51,433 nucleotides of DNA from Polyangia bacterium (GTDB lineage Bacteria; Myxococcota_A; Polyangia; HGW-17; JAJRWW01). Numbering within the stretch: position 1 is the stretch's first letter; each line of letters opens with the position of its first letter. Positions 13,465-19,999 of this stretch are shown here, piece by piece. The stretch spans positions 1-51,433 of the forward strand of contig JAVEWA010000001.1 in assembly GCA_034004785.1 (NCBI GenBank), read 5' to 3'. The notes below the pieces were generated by a model that saw only the letters and a list, made by a program, of their open reading frames with translations, was not told the DNA's origin and ran no database searches. The translations under genes were made by a program, and so were the position numbers.

Positions 13465-14289
13465 TCAGTCATCCATGAAATTGCGGTCCGGGCTGATGCC
13501 GCGGGTCTGGACTGGCTGCTTAAAGCGGGGCTTGGGACGCCAGGGCTGGATCCCCTTGGTGGGCGGCGGCTGGGCGGGCCTCTCCCTCTGGGGCGCCACG
13601 CTCGCCGGCCGCATGCTCTCGGGCTCTTCCATGGCCGCCATGTCCATGGAGTCGGCGTCCATTTCCTTGGTATCTGCCCCAGCGGGCCTTTCGCCTGCTC
13701 CGGGTCTTGCGGGCGGGCTTGCCTCGGGCCTCTCGGGCGGCGGGTCCGCGGGCCTGGGGGCCGCTGCGTCGGCCTTGGCCTCAGGGGGCGGAGGCTCGAC
13801 CTCTCGAGCAGGCCGATCTCCCTCGGCCTCGGGCGTGCCGGGCTGGTCCTTGTCCGGAGAGCCGCCTGATTTGTCGCTCGATTCCTGGGAGGGTTTCTTC
13901 TTGCAGCCAGCTGCGGCCGATGCGCCCAGGAGGGCCGCCAGGGCGAGGGAGGCCTGCTCCAAGAACCTCCGCCTGTCCGGCGCGTCAAGCCGGCCTTTGA
14001 CTCGGGAGATCATCTGGTCCAGGGCTGGCGCGGGCACCGAGGCCAGGATGGCTCGCTCGCTCGCGGAGAAGTCGAGGCCGGTGGCCTCCACTGTGGCCTT
14101 GCGATCTTGCGCCAGGGCATCGGCAAACTCAGGGCTCGCCGCCGCCAGGCCCATCAGGTGCTCGAGGCCCACTGGGATGGGCGGCAGGTCCCGAGCGTTG
14201 CCCTCGGGCTGGCCACCCACGATGGTCGTCCTCGCCGCCTCCCTGCGCAGGATGCTCGCCTTTCCGCTTGTGGCAGCGTTTTTTGTCAT
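13465..14289 (-). CDS. Paralog P1 of a three-member tandem family: leader-like helical N-module, internal RR/lipobox signal and Pro/Glu/Ala-rich tail
   Basis: I prefer ATG 14289, which has an AGGAGG RBS 7 nt upstream and gives [97 protein letters not shown]…[26 protein letters not shown]…. The longest ORF starts at 14346. The module is conserved at the protein level with P2 and P3. Confidence 0.75.
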
Positions 14290-14459
14290 CAGATCCCCTC
14301 CTGCAAGAGCTGTCGAGCCTGGCTGTTTGTTCATCGGGTCTTCCATGGCGTCTCATCCAGATCCGAGCACCGAGAGGTTAGCACATTGGGGCCCCTCGAG
14401 TACATGACCCAGCGAACCAGCGCGCCCGAGGGATCGAGAACCTCCAGGGCCTGGCCGGC

Positions 14460-14583
14460 AATGGGCAGGCCGTCAGAGGGGCAGGTTGCCAATGGGCAGG
14501 CCGTCATAGGGACAGGTTGCCAATGGGCAGGCCGTCAGAGGGGCAGGTTGCCAATGGGCAGGCCGGCAAGGGGCAGGTCGGCG
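14460..14583. repeat. Intergenic tandem repeat, 31 bp x ~4 (AATGGGCAGGCCGTCAGAGGGGCAGGTTGCC), between paralogs P2 and P1
   Basis: Copies lie at 14460-14490, 14491-14521 (2 mismatches), 14522-14552 and 14553-14583 (degenerate). Each unit holds two GGGCAGG cores about 15-16 nt apart and a small GGCAggtTGCC inverted repeat. The period is not a multiple of 3. Confidence 0.9.
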
Positions 14584-14596
14584 CAGAGGGCCCGGG

Positions 14597-15337
14597 TTAG
14601 CGCGGCCGGACGCCGCCCTTGGCGTTCACGTAGGAAGGGCGATCCCGAGGAGGGTCCTGGCAGGGTTGATCGGCAGTCGGCCCCTGGCCAACGCGCTTTT
14701 CATGGATGGCCACTCCGCTCGGGTAGGAGCCTCCGCCCCCCTGGGGCAGCGGGTCCGAGGCCCCGGAGGTGTCCCTGGGGGCGCCAGCGTCTGGGCGAGG
14801 CTGCGGATCTGGCCTTCGCGGAGGCCGGTCGGGCTGGATCCCGGTGGGGGGCGGGGGCTCATGGGGCCGATCCACCCTGGCCCCACCGGCCGTTGCCGGG
14901 GGCCGCTCGGGCCGGCGTTTGGGAAGGGGCTTGCCTTTGCCTGAGGTGGTCTCGCAGCCTGGCAGGGCGGCGCCTCCCACCAGGATGGCCACTGCTGCCG
15001 CTGCCCGCTCGAGGAAGATCCGCCGGTCTGGCTCTACCAGGGCAGGCTTCACCCGGGCGATCATGGTATCCAGGGTGGGTCCGTCCACCGCGCCCAGGAT
15101 GGCCCGCTCCGAGGGGAAGAGCTCGATGCCCGCCGCGTCCGCCGCGCGCTGGGGATCCTTGCGCAGGGCGGCGGCAAAGGGTTCGGAGGTGGAGCCGAGT
15201 GCCAAGAGGTGCTCGAGGCCCACTGGCACGGGAGGAAGCTCCTCATGGCGGCCGTCCGATGGGTGGGCGGCCGCAGCGCTGGAGGAGCCAGCCGAGGTCA
15301 GGCGGCTCGAGGGTGGGGTGGCAGGTCCTTTCTGCAT
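14597..15337 (-). CDS. Paralog P2 of the tandem family (leader-like N-module, internal RR/lipobox signal, Pro/Arg-rich tail)
   Basis: ATG 15337 has an AAGGAG RBS. The sequence reads …EELPPVPVGLEHLLALGSTSEPFAAALRKDPQRAADAAGIELFPSERAILGAVDGPTLDTMIARV…PDRRIFLERAAAAVAILVGGAALPGC…, followed by a Pro/Arg/Asp-rich tail. Confidence 0.8.
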   Translation of the reverse strand: MQKGPATPPSSRLTSAGSSSAAAAHPSDGRHEELPPVPVGLEHLLALGSTSEPFAAALRKDPQRAADAAGIELFPSERAILGAVDGPTLDTMIARVKPALVEPDRRIFLERAAAAVAILVGGAALPGCETTSGKGKPLPKRRPERPPATAGGARVDRPHEPPPPTGIQPDRPPRRPDPQPRPDAGAPRDTSGASDPLPQGGGGSYPSGVAIHEKRVGQGPTADQPCQDPPRDRPSYVNAKGGVRPR

Positions 15338-15444
15338 GGCTCTTCTCCTTGGGCTTCCTGTCTGCGGCCTGTTCGGCCGCCCGTGGTTGTGGGCCTGGGA
15401 GATTCTGGATTTGAGGGTTTGTCTCCGCCTATGGTGGAGGAACC

Positions 15445-16107
15445 CTAGTTGTCTTCTCCTGAACCCTGCCGCGGGCTAGGTTTCGGGGCTACTTTTTCGG
15501 GTCGGATGCCGCCTATCATCCTGGTGTCCTGTGGATCGGGGGCATCCCTGGGCCTCTCGGGCCGGCTGCCCGCGGGCTTATGAGTCCGGTCCGGTCGCGC
15601 GCCGCCGTCCACGTCCAGCTCCGTCTTCCTCGGCCGGAATGGTGGGAGCGCGGGTTGCGCGGCTGCCCCTGCGTCGGGCTCCGAGGGCCTGGGCGTCCGA
15701 GGCTCGGACCCTGGCTGATCCTTTGACTTGGGCGCGGGCTTCTCGGCGCAGGCCGAGAGGGCCGCGCCCCCGAGGAGGAAGGCCACCGCCGCCGCGGCCC
15801 GCTCGAGGAAGATGCGCCGGTCGGGCTGGTCCTGGGCCCTTTCCACGCGGGCGATCATCTGCTCGAGGGAGGAGGCTGGCACGGCCGACAGGATCGAGGA
15901 CTCGGCCGGGGACAGGGAGAGCCCGGCCGCCTGGGCCGCCCTGGCCCTATCGGTTGCGAGGACCGCGGCGAACTCGGGGCTCGCCGCCGCCAGGGAGAGG
16001 ATCTCCTCGAGGCCCGCTGGCACCGGGGGCAGGTCCCGGGCGTTTCCCGGGGGCTGGCCTCCCACTATCGTGGTGCGGGCTGCTTGCCTTTTGCGGGAGT
16101 CATGCAT
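15445..16107 (-). CDS. Paralog P3 of the tandem family (leader-like N-module, internal RR/lipobox signal, Pro-rich tail)
   Basis: The start is ATG 16107 ([88 protein letters not shown]…PDRRIFLERAAAAVAFLLGGAALSAC…), 41 nt after the radical SAM stop. The upstream part of the 574-aa track ORF (to 17169) overlaps the radical SAM gene out of frame and is Arg/Gly/Pro junk. Confidence 0.8.
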   Translation of the reverse strand: MHDSRKRQAARTTIVGGQPPGNARDLPPVPAGLEEILSLAAASPEFAAVLATDRARAAQAAGLSLSPAESSILSAVPASSLEQMIARVERAQDQPDRRIFLERAAAAVAFLLGGAALSACAEKPAPKSKDQPGSEPRTPRPSEPDAGAAAQPALPPFRPRKTELDVDGGARPDRTHKPAGSRPERPRDAPDPQDTRMIGGIRPEKVAPKPSPRQGSGEDN

Positions 16108-16148: not shown

Positions 16149-17636
16149 CTAGCCCACCGTGAGCTGGGCCTTTGCGGTGGTGGCCTGGGCCACCCGAGGG
16201 GAGTGGGCCCCGCAAGAGTCCGAGGCCTCCAGATCGGCCGAGTCCATCGGGTAGAAGCCCATCTCCTGGAGCACTCTCAGCTTGGGCCGGATGTTCCCCT
16301 CCACGTCGAAGTGGAAGAAGCCGGGGAAGAGATCCGGGTGCTCGGTCACGAAGTCGTAGATCGTCGCGTACTCGGGGGAGATTTCCACCCGGGCGGCGCG
16401 GCAGACCTCGTGGCCCGTCAGGATGTACTCGGGGAAGAGGTCCGGACAGAACTCGAGGGCCTTGCCAGCCTCGGCGTACTCCGAGAAGATGTCGGTCTGG
16501 GGCAGGAAACAGAGCATGGAGGGGAGCACGCGGGCGCCCAGCATGCGGAAGGAGATCATCTGGAAGACGCTCTGGTAGAAGTCGTCCATGGTCTCGAAGG
16601 GGAAGCCCCAGACGTAGAAGGCGTCCACCCGGTCGAAGATGCCCACTGCGGAGCTGACGATCTCCACTGCCTGCTCCGGGAGGAAGCCCTTGCGGGTCTT
16701 TTCGAGCACCGAGGGCGAGGCGGACTCGATGCCGAAGCGGAGCTCGATGCAGCCGGACTGGGCCATGCGCCGCATCATCTCGGGCTCGGCCAGGTTCACC
16801 CGCCCGAAGGCCTTCCATTCCACGCCGAGCCGGGAGGATTCGAGAGCGCCGCAGAAAGCGGTGACCTGGGCGGGCGTGCACACGAAGAACTCGTCCTGGA
16901 AGAGGAAGAGATCCACACCGGCCCTGCGCTTCAGCTCGGCCATCTCGTCGAGAATGTTGGCGCTCGAGCGGTGAAAGGCCTTCCGGCCCCAGATCGGCGC
17001 CACCGAGCAGAAGGTGCAAGGGTAGGGGCAGCCCCTGGAGGTCATGACCCCGTAACCCTCGTACTTGGACAGGTCCACCCGGTGCCAGGCCGGGAAGGGC
17101 ACCTCGTCCAGGTTCGCGATGCGGGGCGCGGGCGGGTTGCGCTGGACGACGCCGTCCGGCCTGCGCCACACGAGGTTCGGCACCTGTGCAAAGCCAGCGC
17201 CTGTCTTGTGGGCCTTGACGAGGGGCACGATCATGCGCTCTCCCTCGCCCACGCTTACAGCGTCGATCCAGGGGAAGCGGGTGAGGATCTGCTCCTCCAC
17301 CCAGGCCGGCCCAACTCCCCCGAGCACCACGGTCTTCTCCGGGTGGCGTCGCTTGAGCTCGCCCGAGGCGAGGATGGCGAAGGGGAGCAGGTTCGCCATG
17401 CAGGAGATGCCCACGAGATCCGCGCTCCCTTCCAGGAAGTCGCAGATGCTCTCGGGCTGGAAGGGGTCGTCGTAGGTGCTTCGCTGGTAGTCTCGCAGAT
17501 CCACCTTCAGCCCGGCGTCCTCCAGCACCCTGGTGAGGTAGAGCACCCCGAGGGGCACGTGGTACTCCCGCTCCACCTGGTCGTAGTAGCGCACGTAGAG
17601 CATGTTCAGGTTTAGCAGGGTGATGTCGTCGGCCAT
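16149..17636 (-). CDS. B12-binding-domain (class B) radical SAM enzyme
   Basis: The radical SAM cluster motif is GCPYPCTFCS (CxxxCxxC). The N-terminal Rossmann-like cobalamin-binding-type domain is …PLGVLYLTRVLEDAGLKVDLRDY…DLVGISCMANLLPFAI…VVLGGVGPAW…. A GGAGG RBS lies 5-9 nt before ATG 17636. Confidence 0.9.
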   Translation of the reverse strand: MADDITLLNLNMLYVRYYDQVEREYHVPLGVLYLTRVLEDAGLKVDLRDYQRSTYDDPFQPESICDFLEGSADLVGISCMANLLPFAILASGELKRRHPEKTVVLGGVGPAWVEEQILTRFPWIDAVSVGEGERMIVPLVKAHKTGAGFAQVPNLVWRRPDGVVQRNPPAPRIANLDEVPFPAWHRVDLSKYEGYGVMTSRGCPYPCTFCSVAPIWGRKAFHRSSANILDEMAELKRRAGVDLFLFQDEFFVCTPAQVTAFCGALESSRLGVEWKAFGRVNLAEPEMMRRMAQSGCIELRFGIESASPSVLEKTRKGFLPEQAVEIVSSAVGIFDRVDAFYVWGFPFETMDDFYQSVFQMISFRMLGARVLPSMLCFLPQTDIFSEYAEAGKALEFCPDLFPEYILTGHEVCRAARVEISPEYATIYDFVTEHPDLFPGFFHFDVEGNIRPKLRVLQEMGFYPMDSADLEASDSCGAHSPRVAQATTAKAQLTVG

Positions 17637-17754: not shown

Positions 17755-17819
17755 GGTTCCCTTTCAGGGTTCCCTTTCAGGGTTCCTTTTCAGGGTTCCT
17801 TTTCAGGGTTCCCTTTCAG
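17755..17819. repeat. Tandem repeat, 13 bp x 5 (GGTTCC(C/T)TTTCAG), spanning the stop codon of the SagB-like gene and the spacer upstream of the radical SAM promoter
   Basis: Units lie at 17755-17767, 17768-17780, 17781-17793, 17794-17806 and 17807-17819, followed by a partial ggt. Units 3 and 4 differ by C->T. The junctions create CCCTttcAGGG and AGGGaaCCCT inverted repeats. The period is not a multiple of 3. Confidence 0.9.
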
Positions 17820-18447
17820 GGTAGGCTGGCAGGGTAGTGAGGCGCGGATCCTCGATGGCCCGGCCCACGGTGAAGCAGTAGAGGCACTGCCAGGCAGTCC
17901 CCCAAAGGCCGAGGACCCGGTGGACCTCGGCATCCAGGAAGCAGCCGATCCCCGTGCCCCTCATGGCAGCGGCCTCGGCCTCCAGGTACAGGACCTGGCC
18001 AAGGGCGCCCGCCTCCCAGTGAATCGCCCGGTAGAACCAGGGCCCCTCGGCCTCCAGGCGAGGCCCGAGCTCGGCGAGGAAGGCCACGGCGAAGGCGCCA
18101 TCCGAGGCGATCTCCTGCTGTCCGAGGAGGCCCATCGAGAGAGCCCTGAGATCGCCAGCCTCCAGGAGGAACAGGGGGAGGTGAGGCGGGGCGCAGGCAG
18201 GGCTATTCGAGGGGTCCCAGGCTCCATCGAGGCCCATGGTCTGGCGCTGCGCTCGGGCATCCAGGAGATCTCCTGGGACAGGGGCCAGGTCTAGAAGCGC
18301 CATCTGGGCAGTGGGGTAGCTCCTGAAGGGCTCTGGCTCGCTTGCCCAGTCGAGATGAGCCCTCGCGCGGGCCGGGCGTCCGAGGAGGTGCCTGGTGCGC
18401 TCGTGGTAGTCGAGCACCTCTGACAGGGGATCCTGCGAAAAGGTCAT
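17803..18447 (-). CDS. SagB-type dehydrogenase / nitroreductase-superfamily protein (short form)
   Basis: ATG 18447 gives MTFSQDPLSEVLDYHERTRHLLGRP…LDWASEPEPFRSYP…, the YHExT(K/R)H start typical of SagB/ThcOx-like proteins as I remember them. The C-terminal nitroreductase-like segment is HWEAGALGQVLYLEAEAAAMRGTGIGCFLDAEVHRVLGL…YCFTVG. The longest ORF (TTG 18531) would overlap the divergent TPR gene. Confidence 0.65.
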   Translation of the reverse strand: MTFSQDPLSEVLDYHERTRHLLGRPARARAHLDWASEPEPFRSYPTAQMALLDLAPVPGDLLDARAQRQTMGLDGAWDPSNSPACAPPHLPLFLLEAGDLRALSMGLLGQQEIASDGAFAVAFLAELGPRLEAEGPWFYRAIHWEAGALGQVLYLEAEAAAMRGTGIGCFLDAEVHRVLGLWGTAWQCLYCFTVGRAIEDPRLTTLPAYPEREP

Positions 18448-18523
18448 GGGGCGAGCATGACCTGTCGCGCCGAGGGGTGCAATCAGGGTAAACTCCGCCC
18501 AAGGGATGTGAGGGAGCAGGCAT

Positions 18524-19999
18524 ATGCTCAACCGGGATCAGATCATCGCGGCCGCCAGGCGCCTCGCCAGGGAAGGGAACTTCACCGCGGCTATCCGGCG
18601 CTACGAGAAGCTGGTGGAGGAAGACCCGAGTGACCTCGGGGCCCTGCTCAAGATAGGGTATCTGCACGCCTGCAATCGGGACCGGGAGGCGGCCGCGGAG
18701 GCCTACCTCGAGGCCGCCCACGCCTACGAGCAGGCCGGCGACAAGCAGACGGCGGCCAAGGTTCTCACTCAGGTGCTGCGGCTCCAACCCGAGCAGGTGG
18801 ACGTCTACTTCTGGCTGGCTGAGCTGCTGGGTGGGCTCGGACAGCTCGCCGAGGGGAGGCGCTGGCTGGAGGCCGCGGAGCGGCTGCTCATCGCGAAGAA
18901 GAGGCCCAAGGATGCTCTTCGGGTGCTGGAGGCCATGCTGCGCCTGGATCCTGGGAACGTGGCGCTCCTGATCAGGCTGGGCGAGGCGCGGATTCACGCC
19001 GGGAAGAAGGAGGAGGCGCTCGAGGCTCTTCGACAGGCGGCGGACATCCTGCGAATGGCGGAGTGGATGGACGACTTCGTCAAGGTGGCCGAGCGGATCG
19101 CGTACCTGGATCAGTCGGATCTCTCCATCGCCAAGGAGCTGTCGGCGCTCTATCTGAGGCGGAAAGACCCGCAGGCGGCTCTTCGCAAGCTCCAGCGGTG
19201 CTACAGGTCCAACAAGGACGACCCTGCGACCCTGGGACTCCTCGTGGAGGCCTTTGTCGCCCTTGGAGAGAAAAGAAAGGCCGTGACGATCCTGGAGGCC
19301 CTCGTCGAGCTGCACCGCCAGCGGGGAGAGGCGGAGGCAGAGGAGGCGGCAGCGAAGCGCATCCTCGGCCTGGACCCGGCCCGCTCTTCGAAGCGAAAGA
19401 AGGCTCAGCAAGGCGCCAGGATCGAGAGGTCCACTGGTGAGCTGCTCCCCCAGGCTCGCGACAGCGAGGAGATCCCTCGACCGCTCAACACAGACGAGCA
19501 CCAGTTGGCCACCTTGGAGCGTTCCCTGCAACCAGACCCGAGGAGCTCGAGCGCCAGTCGCCGGTTCCTACCGGCCCTCACCGCCCAGACCGAGGAGAGA
19601 ATTGGGAGAAAGACGAGCGGCACCACGGAGCTCGACCTCGCTGACCTGGAGGAGGTTTCCGGGTGGGAGAGAGAACCGATCTGGCAGGAGGAGGTCACTG
19701 CACAGGAGGTCGCGAAGAGCCGTGCCGACGAGAGTCCACCTGTGGCAATCGGCAAGAAGCTCTCGGCTGGGCCCGTCCTGACCCAAGAGTTGGATATAGG
19801 CGATGTGGAGATTGAGGGCGACGATTCCGAAGGGATCGAGCAAGGCAGCGACGAGGCAGAGCTCGATGCCTTGGGAGCGCTGATCGACGAGGAGACCGAG
19901 CGTCGGCGTCCCTTCAGACCGGTGACCACTCTCCCCGATGCCTCCTTGCCCCCGACCTCTGGGAAGGGGAGCTCCCCGCAGAGGAGACCGCGCCGTTAG
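18524..19999 (+). CDS. TPR-repeat protein with an acidic, disordered C-terminal half; N-terminal ~290 aa are paralogous to the 34778..37693 protein
   Basis: The sequence MLNRDQIIAAARRLAREGNFTAAIRRYEKLVEEDPSDLGALLKIGYLH…VLRLQPEQVDVYFWLAELL… aligns colinearly with MAINKNKVIAAAQKFVQKGQLDKAIREYLRVVEEEPGDVRTWLKIGDLQ…VLRLQPEFVEVHFKLAALN…. Confidence 0.85.
   Translation: MLNRDQIIAAARRLAREGNFTAAIRRYEKLVEEDPSDLGALLKIGYLHACNRDREAAAEAYLEAAHAYEQAGDKQTAAKVLTQVLRLQPEQVDVYFWLAELLGGLGQLAEGRRWLEAAERLLIAKKRPKDALRVLEAMLRLDPGNVALLIRLGEARIHAGKKEEALEALRQAADILRMAEWMDDFVKVAERIAYLDQSDLSIAKELSALYLRRKDPQAALRKLQRCYRSNKDDPATLGLLVEAFVALGEKRKAVTILEALVELHRQRGEAEAEEAAAKRILGLDPARSSKRKKAQQGARIERSTGELLPQARDSEEIPRPLNTDEHQLATLERSLQPDPRSSSASRRFLPALTAQTEERIGRKTSGTTELDLADLEEVSGWEREPIWQEEVTAQEVAKSRADESPPVAIGKKLSAGPVLTQELDIGDVEIEGDDSEGIEQGSDEAELDALGALIDEETERRRPFRPVTTLPDASLPPTSGKGSSPQRRPRR

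Follow-up and report, generated by a model that had tools for sequence, protein, structure and literature searches.

Proteins with an internal lipoprotein-like signal behind a leader-like module, encoded beside a B12-binding radical SAM enzyme

How should a segment that reads as a twin-arginine (Tat) lipoprotein signal be understood when it lies about 95–120 residues inside a protein, behind a conserved module? This question is raised by three tandem paralogues, here called P1, P2 and P3, which are encoded on the minus strand of a 51,433-nucleotide stretch of Polyangia bacterium DNA (GenBank assembly GCA_034004785.1, contig JAVEWA010000001.1, positions 1 to 51,433), referred to below as the window. 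A first-pass annotation of the window had described the buried signal in all three proteins, had argued that the region preceding it is translated, and had speculated that signal peptidase II (SPII) would remove this region after export. We found that the three proteins belong to a large family with a common layout, which consists of an N-terminal RTTIVGG(R/Q)PP motif, an Os1348/NHLP-like helical bundle, the internal signal-like segment and a Pro-rich repeat tail, and which is linked to a B12-binding radical S-adenosylmethionine (SAM) enzyme. With slightly better than even confidence, we read P1–P3 as leader–signal–core precursors of a protein-sized product akin to the peptides synthesised on ribosomes and modified after translation (RiPPs), which would be modified in the cytoplasm, exported, and cut and lipidated at the Cys of the signal.

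The three genes stand in a minus-strand row of five (radical SAM enzyme, P3, P2, P1 and a gene for a protein with Kelch and Cys-rich repeats), in which a gap of 41 nt separates the radical SAM gene (17636 to 16149) from P3 (16107 to 15445). The start of P1 is likely Met20 (position 14289), which has a strong Shine-Dalgarno duplex and agrees with the database gene call of 274 aa. The features of the enzyme and the three putative precursors are as follows.

16149..17636, minus strand: B12-binding radical SAM enzyme, 495 aa (Pfam, NCBIfam and locus linkage)
15445..16107, minus strand: P3, putative precursor of 220 aa with N-terminal motif, NHLP-like bundle, internal signal-like segment and Pro-rich repeat tail
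16057..16077, minus strand: linear motif RTTIVGG of P3, residues 11–17 (alignments and structure model)
15832..16017, minus strand: Os1348/NHLP-like helical bundle of P3, residues 31–92 (NF038399, model confidence and Foldseek)
15748..15822, minus strand: internal signal-like segment of P3, DRRIFLERAAAAVAFLLGGAALSAC, residues 96–120
15448..15747, minus strand: Pro-rich tail of P3 with GxxP(D/E) motifs (GGARPD, AGSRPE, GGIRPE)
14597..15337, minus strand: P2, putative precursor of 246 aa, without RTTIVGG, bundle retained
14954–15028, minus strand: signal-like segment of P2, DRRIFLERAAAAVAILVGGAALPGC, residues 104–128
13465..14289, minus strand, within an open reading frame (ORF) that reaches 14346: P1, putative precursor of 274 aa counted from Met20
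14212–14232, minus strand: RTTIVGG of P1
13903–13977, minus strand: signal-like segment of P1, residues 124–148 of the 293-aa ORF

The internal signal-like segment and its conservation

All three segments quoted in the first-pass annotation are present in the minus-strand ORFs, where each comprises DRR(I/R)FLE, an uncharged Ala/Gly/Leu stretch of 14–18 residues and (A/G)-C, within residues ~97–148. The twin arginine begins at residue 97 in P3, 105 in P2 and 106 or 125 in P1 (depending on the start used), hence in none of the three is it N-terminal. The segments had been called canonical Tat lipoprotein signals; this description holds strictly for the lipobox of P3 (L-S-A-C), whereas P2 (L-P-G-C) and P1 (A-A-G-C) have relaxed lipoboxes. 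In P1, P3 and most homologues this Cys is the single Cys of the whole protein, and in the structure model of P3 the segment forms a single helix (residues 97–113).

A database search seeded with P3 returned 83 homologues, all of them unnamed or annotated as ‘hypothetical’. A scan seeded with a pattern, using a trimmed alignment and one genome per species, gave 112 relatives, from which 80 loci were kept, all in metagenome-assembled genomes (MAGs). The locus set comprised 141 non-identical precursor ORFs from 87 loci, binned to Myxococcota, Planctomycetota, Verrucomicrobiota, Zixibacteria, Chloroflexota, Armatimonadota and others, although some of the bin labels (Rickettsiales, Enterobacterales) seem untrustworthy. 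When a profile was searched exhaustively, 2,011 cluster representatives reached E ≤ 1e-3 and 1,538 reached E ≤ 1e-10, which puts the family above 1,500 clusters at 50% identity; 132 of the new matches were inspected. The layout described above was common to the 83 homologues and to the 141 precursors. Searches of the literature on RiPPs with twin-arginine signals, on ‘lipo-invert’ domains and on proteusin and cobalamin systems in these phyla returned no description of this family.

In 82 of the 83 homologues a hydrophobic stretch of the AAxAVVLLGGAAL type is immediately followed by a Cys, and in most it is preceded by RRxFL. Of the 141 precursors, 93 (66%) have the twin arginine and 105 (74%) a Cys within 32 residues of the h-region's start, with G, A or S at position −1 in 96 of these 105; a strict lipobox ([LVI][ASTVI][GAS]C) is found in only 26 of the 105. 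The inspected profile matches gave similar figures, with RRxFL in 116 (88%), a Cys after the h-region in 123 (93%) and an h-region more than 60 residues into the protein in 131. The arrangement of twin arginine, h-region and Cys is a family trait and not the product of chance. Where the Cys is missing, the place of the lipobox is mostly taken by Ala-rich, AxA-like endings (AYA-ED, AMA-FQ, AQA-AD, ALA-Q), which resemble signal peptidase I (SPI) sites, a likeness that is suggestive only, such patterns being frequent in Ala-rich sequence.

The first-pass annotation had itself raised the alternative that the hydrophobic segment is a stable transmembrane anchor. On this account P1–P3 would be uncleaved bitopic proteins of type II topology (N-in/C-out), in which the NHLP-like domain and RTTIVGG are functional as substrate or partner of the enzyme, the tail is an unmodified periplasmic spacer, the arginines supply only the positive-inside charge and the Cys serves some other function. 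Cytoplasmic N-terminal domains of about 90 residues followed by one transmembrane helix are common, for example in anti-sigma factors. Conservation in these proteins is highest in RTTIVGG and the bundle, a third of members lack the twin arginine, and the radical SAM enzyme is without an N-terminal signal-like sequence, so that the N-terminal part of the precursor would be its easiest point of access. The segment and tail fit the bitopic account poorly, however. The uncharged stretch is just 14–18 residues long with GG mid-way, and a crude Hessa-scale sum, which is rough and position-independent, is positive at +3.5 to +5.3 kcal/mol for P1–P3 with a family median of +3.3. The Cys falls at a fixed short distance, mostly behind a small residue and usually as the sole Cys, while AxA-like endings occupy the same place in most Cys-less paralogues. 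Moreover, the tail motif (described below) is strongly non-random and kept across phyla, which would be unexpected for a spacer. These features suggest the h-region of a signal rather than a stable anchor, and we consider the bitopic account a possible but clearly minor one.

A second alternative keeps the leader–signal–core logic and changes the route, with export by Sec, through the signal recognition particle (SRP) or post-translationally by SecA, and with RRxFL(G) retained for another purpose such as contact with the enzyme. Indeed, 48 of the 141 members have RP, RA, MP or similar in place of RR yet keep xAFLG, hence, as judged by this motif, Tat use is not universal. P1–P3 also fall under the cut-offs of Tat models: against TIGR01409 (TAT_signal_seq, curated cut-off 16.7 bits) the excised segment of P2 scored 15.7 bits and that of P1 11.6, P3 had no match, and four homologues scored 10.6–19.2 bits, with one above the cut-off; a Rieske Tat-signal model gave the excised segments 14.5–16.6 bits against a cut-off of 24. 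The characterised precursors of diacylglycerol-modified RiPPs (DAG-RiPPs), the nearest precedent, have signals of SPI or SPII type, and Tat goes unmentioned in the paper describing them (PMC13056109). On the other hand, RR followed by F-L is found in 66–88% of members, depending on the set; the h-region, like that of Tat signals, is rich in Ala and Gly and of weak hydrophobicity; one homologue passes TIGR01409, as noted; and the paralogues with domains resembling acyl carrier protein (ACP) that were inspected, rather than counted systematically, carry RR, which fits export of folded domains. Sec export with the arginines kept for another reason is in our view rather unlikely.

The NCBIfam model NF058595, a ‘lipo-invert putative C-terminal anchoring domain’ with a cut-off of 37 bits, had no match in P1–P3. 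It matched two planctomycete homologues weakly (L011:7986 with 21.3 bits and L026:7983 with 13.7 bits) over the last helix, twin arginine, h-region and Cys, and may represent a curated family that rests on a comparable notion of a non-N-terminal lipoprotein signal; we found no literature on it. One paralogue, L032:4944, passes from the leader directly to GxRPx repeats with no hydrophobic segment (crude insertion energy of +10.7) and could be a natural signal-less control.

The N-terminal module

The most conserved stretch of the family is the N-terminal RTTIVGG(R/Q)PP, conserved to at least 90% in one alignment (A1) and invariant in another (A2). In the P3 model it is non-helical and of low confidence, with a pLDDT (predicted local distance difference test) of 53–65. 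P2 lacks the near-invariant RTTIVGG, having RLTSAGSSS... instead, and retains the bundle, the twin-arginine signal and the Cys; paralogues without RTTIVGG were also seen in other multi-copy loci.

Behind the motif, residues 31–92 of P3 form confident helices in an AlphaFold2 (AF2) model (pLDDT 95–97). This bundle matches NF038399, the Os1348 family of the NHLP clan, with 27.1 bits in P1, 23.6 in P2 and 27.8 in P3 (E-values from 2e-6 to 4e-5, that of P3 being 1.9e-6), and homologues score 22.5–35.2 bits with E-values down to 1e-8. As these E-values are significant but every score lies under the curated cut-off of 40 bits, P1–P3 are, at the level of profile matches, relatives within the NHLP clan and not members of NF038399. 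The bundles also weakly match models of nitrile hydratase alpha, thiocyanate hydrolase and NHLP leaders, although the NHLP leader model TIGR03793 (cut-off 50.9 bits) found no match in P1–P3 and gave homologues only 12–16 bits. Pfam searches with the full-length precursors gave no useful match. Structural comparison agreed with the profiles: the best Foldseek match in the PDB was 6lk7 (Os1348; probability 0.93–0.96, target TM-score 0.54–0.61 over 61–63 aligned columns), with nitrile hydratase alpha and the proteusin DprE2 next, both scoring weakly. The Os1348 protein is small and is a putative precursor of a bacteriocin (PMC7726476). The description of the module as leader-like is therefore borne out by the NHLP-clan profile match, by the Os1348 fold and by its linkage to a B12 radical SAM enzyme (see below).

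Whether this module is translated at all was a point of doubt, since a Met in the sequence MI(A/S)RV precedes the twin arginine and could act as an internal start. The Met was confirmed at 13 residues upstream in each of P3, P2 and P1 (Met84, Met92 and Met112, respectively). Were it the sole start, the proteins would be ordinary Tat lipoproteins with an N-terminal signal, the Met-to-RR spacing would give a textbook n-region, and the ~95 upstream codons would be untranslated or would encode a separate product; the invariance of the Met in the 83 closest homologues also speaks for such a start. Beyond these homologues, however, the position is Ile or Val in most members from Planctomycetota, Zixibacteria and other non-myxobacterial groups (for example QLEAIIARTxVP), and is therefore better understood as a hydrophobic position in a helix. 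No Shine-Dalgarno sequence was found before the internal Mets of P1–P3 (duplex energies of −2.2 to −5.5 kcal/mol, with the −5.5 poorly spaced), in contrast to the annotated starts of P2 (−8.5 kcal/mol) and P1 (−10.8 kcal/mol).

The module itself behaves as protein. Rather than being absent from orthologues or drifting without regard to frame, it is conserved in frame at the protein level across the six phyla named above, with a motif that does not vary and a fold modelled at high confidence, and it shares one reading frame with the signal in every precursor ORF recovered. The comparison of synonymous and non-synonymous divergence that had been proposed as a check gave a ratio of non-synonymous to synonymous change (dN/dS) of 0.46–0.56 for the module among P1–P3, with the signal segment lowest of the three regions at 0.11–0.34, and G+C at third codon positions exceeds that at second positions in this frame (GC3 > GC2). 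The earlier argument that the module is translated therefore stands. We rejected the internal Met as a start, because it is not conserved beyond one clade and has no Shine-Dalgarno site, and regard sole use of it as extremely improbable.

The radical SAM partner, the tail and the surrounding genes

An orthologue of the window's radical SAM enzyme (53–71% identity over ~480 residues) was encoded on the same strand in 68 of 83 non-duplicate loci. Of the 15 loci without one, 13 end too near the precursor, hence 68 of 70 informative loci are positive. In 67 loci the enzyme gene comes immediately downstream of a tandem series of one to six precursors; the order in the window, with the enzyme first, is rarer and is shared with locus L029. 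All-vs-all clustering of neighbouring ORFs, which is noisy owing to spurious ORFs in GC-rich DNA, revealed no further partner such as a protease, a transporter or a RiPP recognition element (RRE) protein, and no other family was present in more than 15 loci. As no other neighbouring family is conserved, the system consists of the precursor or precursors and one enzyme.

Pfam assigns B12-binding (E 4e-14) and Radical_SAM (E 5e-13) domains to the enzyme, which has CxxxCxxC at residue 203. Its best NCBIfam match is ApyD (NF050148), at 159.8 bits against a cut-off of 750 and over only the first 363 of 645 model positions, while TIGR03975, the RiPP maturation radical SAM C-methyltransferase, gave 88.5 bits against a cut-off of 281.85, and solved class B enzymes were distant (E 1e-13 at best). 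By its domains, therefore, this is a predicted class B radical SAM enzyme that falls within no named subfamily. ApyD methylates the C-beta of Tyr (PMC10635010), a target which gives no clue to one in a P-D motif. The conserved Cys was considered as a target of the enzyme and set aside as unlikely, given that loci whose sole precursor is Cys-less still carry the enzyme. In two loci a gene for an FKBP-type peptidyl-prolyl isomerase lies one or two genes past the radical SAM gene (L004:11460–12473 and L007:14117–15118), which is intriguing for a Pro-rich substrate but may reflect lineage synteny.

The tail that follows the signal is built on a repeat with the consensus G-(I/A/V)-(R/A)-P-D-x-P-(P). 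In 139 family tails we counted 275 instances of GxxP[DE], where shuffled sequences gave 36 ± 5.8, a 7.6-fold enrichment. Repeats in the window are degenerate (GGARPD, AGSRPE and GGIRPE in P3, TGIQPD in P2, KGIQPW and RGISPD in P1). Many members end in G-(G/I)-(V/I)-R-P-x, including P2 with GGVRPR, and the repeat is kept even in precursors without the Cys. In the P3 model the tail has no secondary structure, with a pLDDT of about 51–67.

Seven planctomycete paralogues (L023:7095, L026:4799, L026:5875, L026:6914, L064:7986, L075:7995 and L011:8797) differ in carrying one or two ACP-like domains after the twin-arginine segment (E down to 1e-14). They have no lipobox Cys and often no RTTIVGG. The phosphopantetheine Ser is missing in the four that were inspected for it (L023:7095, L026:4799, L064:7986 and L075:7995). 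GxRPx follows the ACP-like region in six of the seven (not in L064:7986), mostly at the C-terminus.

The window has a G+C content of ~65% and encodes a protein with a myxobacterial Cys-rich repeat. The gene 3′ of P1 (10556–13213, minus strand) encodes a large protein with a Kelch beta-propeller and myxobacterial Cys-rich repeats, which has an ordinary N-terminal lipoprotein signal of its own with an LSAC lipobox, as in P3; this gene is not conserved beside precursors in other loci. Just upstream of the radical SAM gene (17803–18531, minus strand) lies a gene of the nitroreductase family with faint SagB-like matches, which has the look of a RiPP dehydrogenase. We considered it as a part of the system, but none of the 87 loci contains a homologue, and it is probably unrelated. 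Much of the 307-nt spacer between P2 and P1 is taken up by a 31-bp tandem repeat (14459–14578, 3.9 copies, 93% matches, unit CAATGGGCAGGCCGTCAGAGGGGCAGGTTGC). A scan for promoters and terminators gave no signal above background.

Proposed route and relation to known systems

The leader–signal–core reading can be set out as a sequence of steps. RTTIVGG(R/Q)PP and the Os1348/NHLP-type bundle would recruit the adjacent B12 radical SAM enzyme in the cytoplasm, where it would modify the precursor, C-methylation being the likeliest chemistry. The likeliest target would be the tail repeats, G-(I/A)-(R/A)-P-D-x-P; we favour these GxRPD repeats because they are the sole tail feature kept across phyla and because they are kept in Cys-less sole precursors beside the enzyme. 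The internal signal would then insert as a hairpin with the leader remaining cytoplasmic, and would be of Tat type in the window and in most members, a route proposed because the cytoplasmic modification must finish first, because of the RRxFL motif and because of the weak h-region; since a third of members lack RR, Sec-type export would have to serve some clades. After export of the tail, Lgt would place diacylglycerol on the Cys and SPII would cut before it. This single housekeeping cut would take off leader and signal together, and the modified Pro-rich peptide would stay in the envelope by its lipid anchor. That one such cleavage would suffice would explain the lack of a conserved leader protease or transporter dedicated to the system.

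Several observations weigh against this route. P1 and P2 have relaxed lipoboxes, the excised segments of all three proteins remain under the TIGR01409 cut-off, and the members without RR that nonetheless keep xAFLG imply that the motif may serve another purpose. The ACP-like domains that follow the signal in some paralogues are an odd cargo for such a pathway. The nearest named relative of the enzyme, ApyD, aligns over the catalytic core only, and the most conserved element of the precursors is the N-terminal motif and not the tail, hence the target of the enzyme could lie on the cytoplasmic side. To our knowledge, no natural lipoprotein signal has been described after a folded domain of ~95 residues.

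[quoted passage not shown] As proposed here, a precursor meets a cytoplasmic enzyme and then the housekeeping lipoprotein pathway at a lipobox Cys, and no dedicated protease or exporter is required in the locus. The two differ in that the DAG-RiPP signal is N-terminal, whereas here it is internal, after a leader of ~95 residues, and is predicted from motifs to be of SPII type, and in that a B12 radical SAM enzyme and mostly twin-arginine signals take the place of MNIOs and signals described without reference to Tat. The authors of that study expected the route to serve chiefly systems that are leader-independent or use a follower peptide, since the N-terminus is taken up by the signal peptide. 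Compared with it, the present family would be a RiPP–lipoprotein hybrid with an NHLP-clan leader.

The leader itself recalls Os1348 (NF038399; 6lk7) and the proteusins, which have a helical leader related to nitrile hydratase alpha, adjacent maturation enzymes and tandem precursor paralogues. Proteusin genes adjoin B12 radical SAM C-methyltransferases. Unlike these systems, P1–P3 fall under the family cut-offs, have no Gly-Gly cleavage motif and have no conserved C39-peptidase ABC transporter nearby; they add RTTIVGG, a signal between leader and core, and a Pro-rich repeat core of 100–170 residues. ApyD and other class B RiPP methyltransferases share the B12-binding and radical SAM core and an adjacent substrate peptide gene, but the match to ApyD, at 160 of 750 bits, is confined to the core.

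Internal Tat signals are known from dual Sec-Tat membrane proteins such as the actinobacterial Rieske proteins, where they follow Sec-inserted transmembrane helices and are uncleaved (PMC3471235, PMC5449189). These likewise have an internal twin arginine with a hydrophobic segment, and a preceding polypeptide on the cytoplasmic or membrane side. In contrast, their segment stays as an anchor, whereas the lipobox here predicts cleavage, and P3 has no hydrophobic stretch before the segment, residues 31–92 forming a soluble helical bundle. The sole link between Tat and RiPPs in the literature searched was an unsuccessful engineering attempt (PMC5686179).

If the proposed route is correct, the family may hold the first natural Tat-linked RiPPs. 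Proteins of this kind will be overlooked or misinterpreted by gene callers and by signal predictors restricted to the N-terminus. The two-gene system is small enough for reconstitution, and its simple repeated motif offers a candidate substrate for a B12 radical SAM enzyme. RiPP logic normally requires a dedicated protease and exporter; a leader–signal–core layout, if true, would show how one precursor can accommodate a general export signal alongside an enzyme that depends on a leader. More tentatively still, these could be previously undescribed, phylum-spanning RiPP-like lipoproteins in which Tat and SPII replace the dedicated protease and transporter, and in which the leader-bound enzyme, held near the twin arginine, might act as an export checkpoint in the manner of Tat proofreading chaperones, releasing only fully modified cores for lipidation and display at the envelope.

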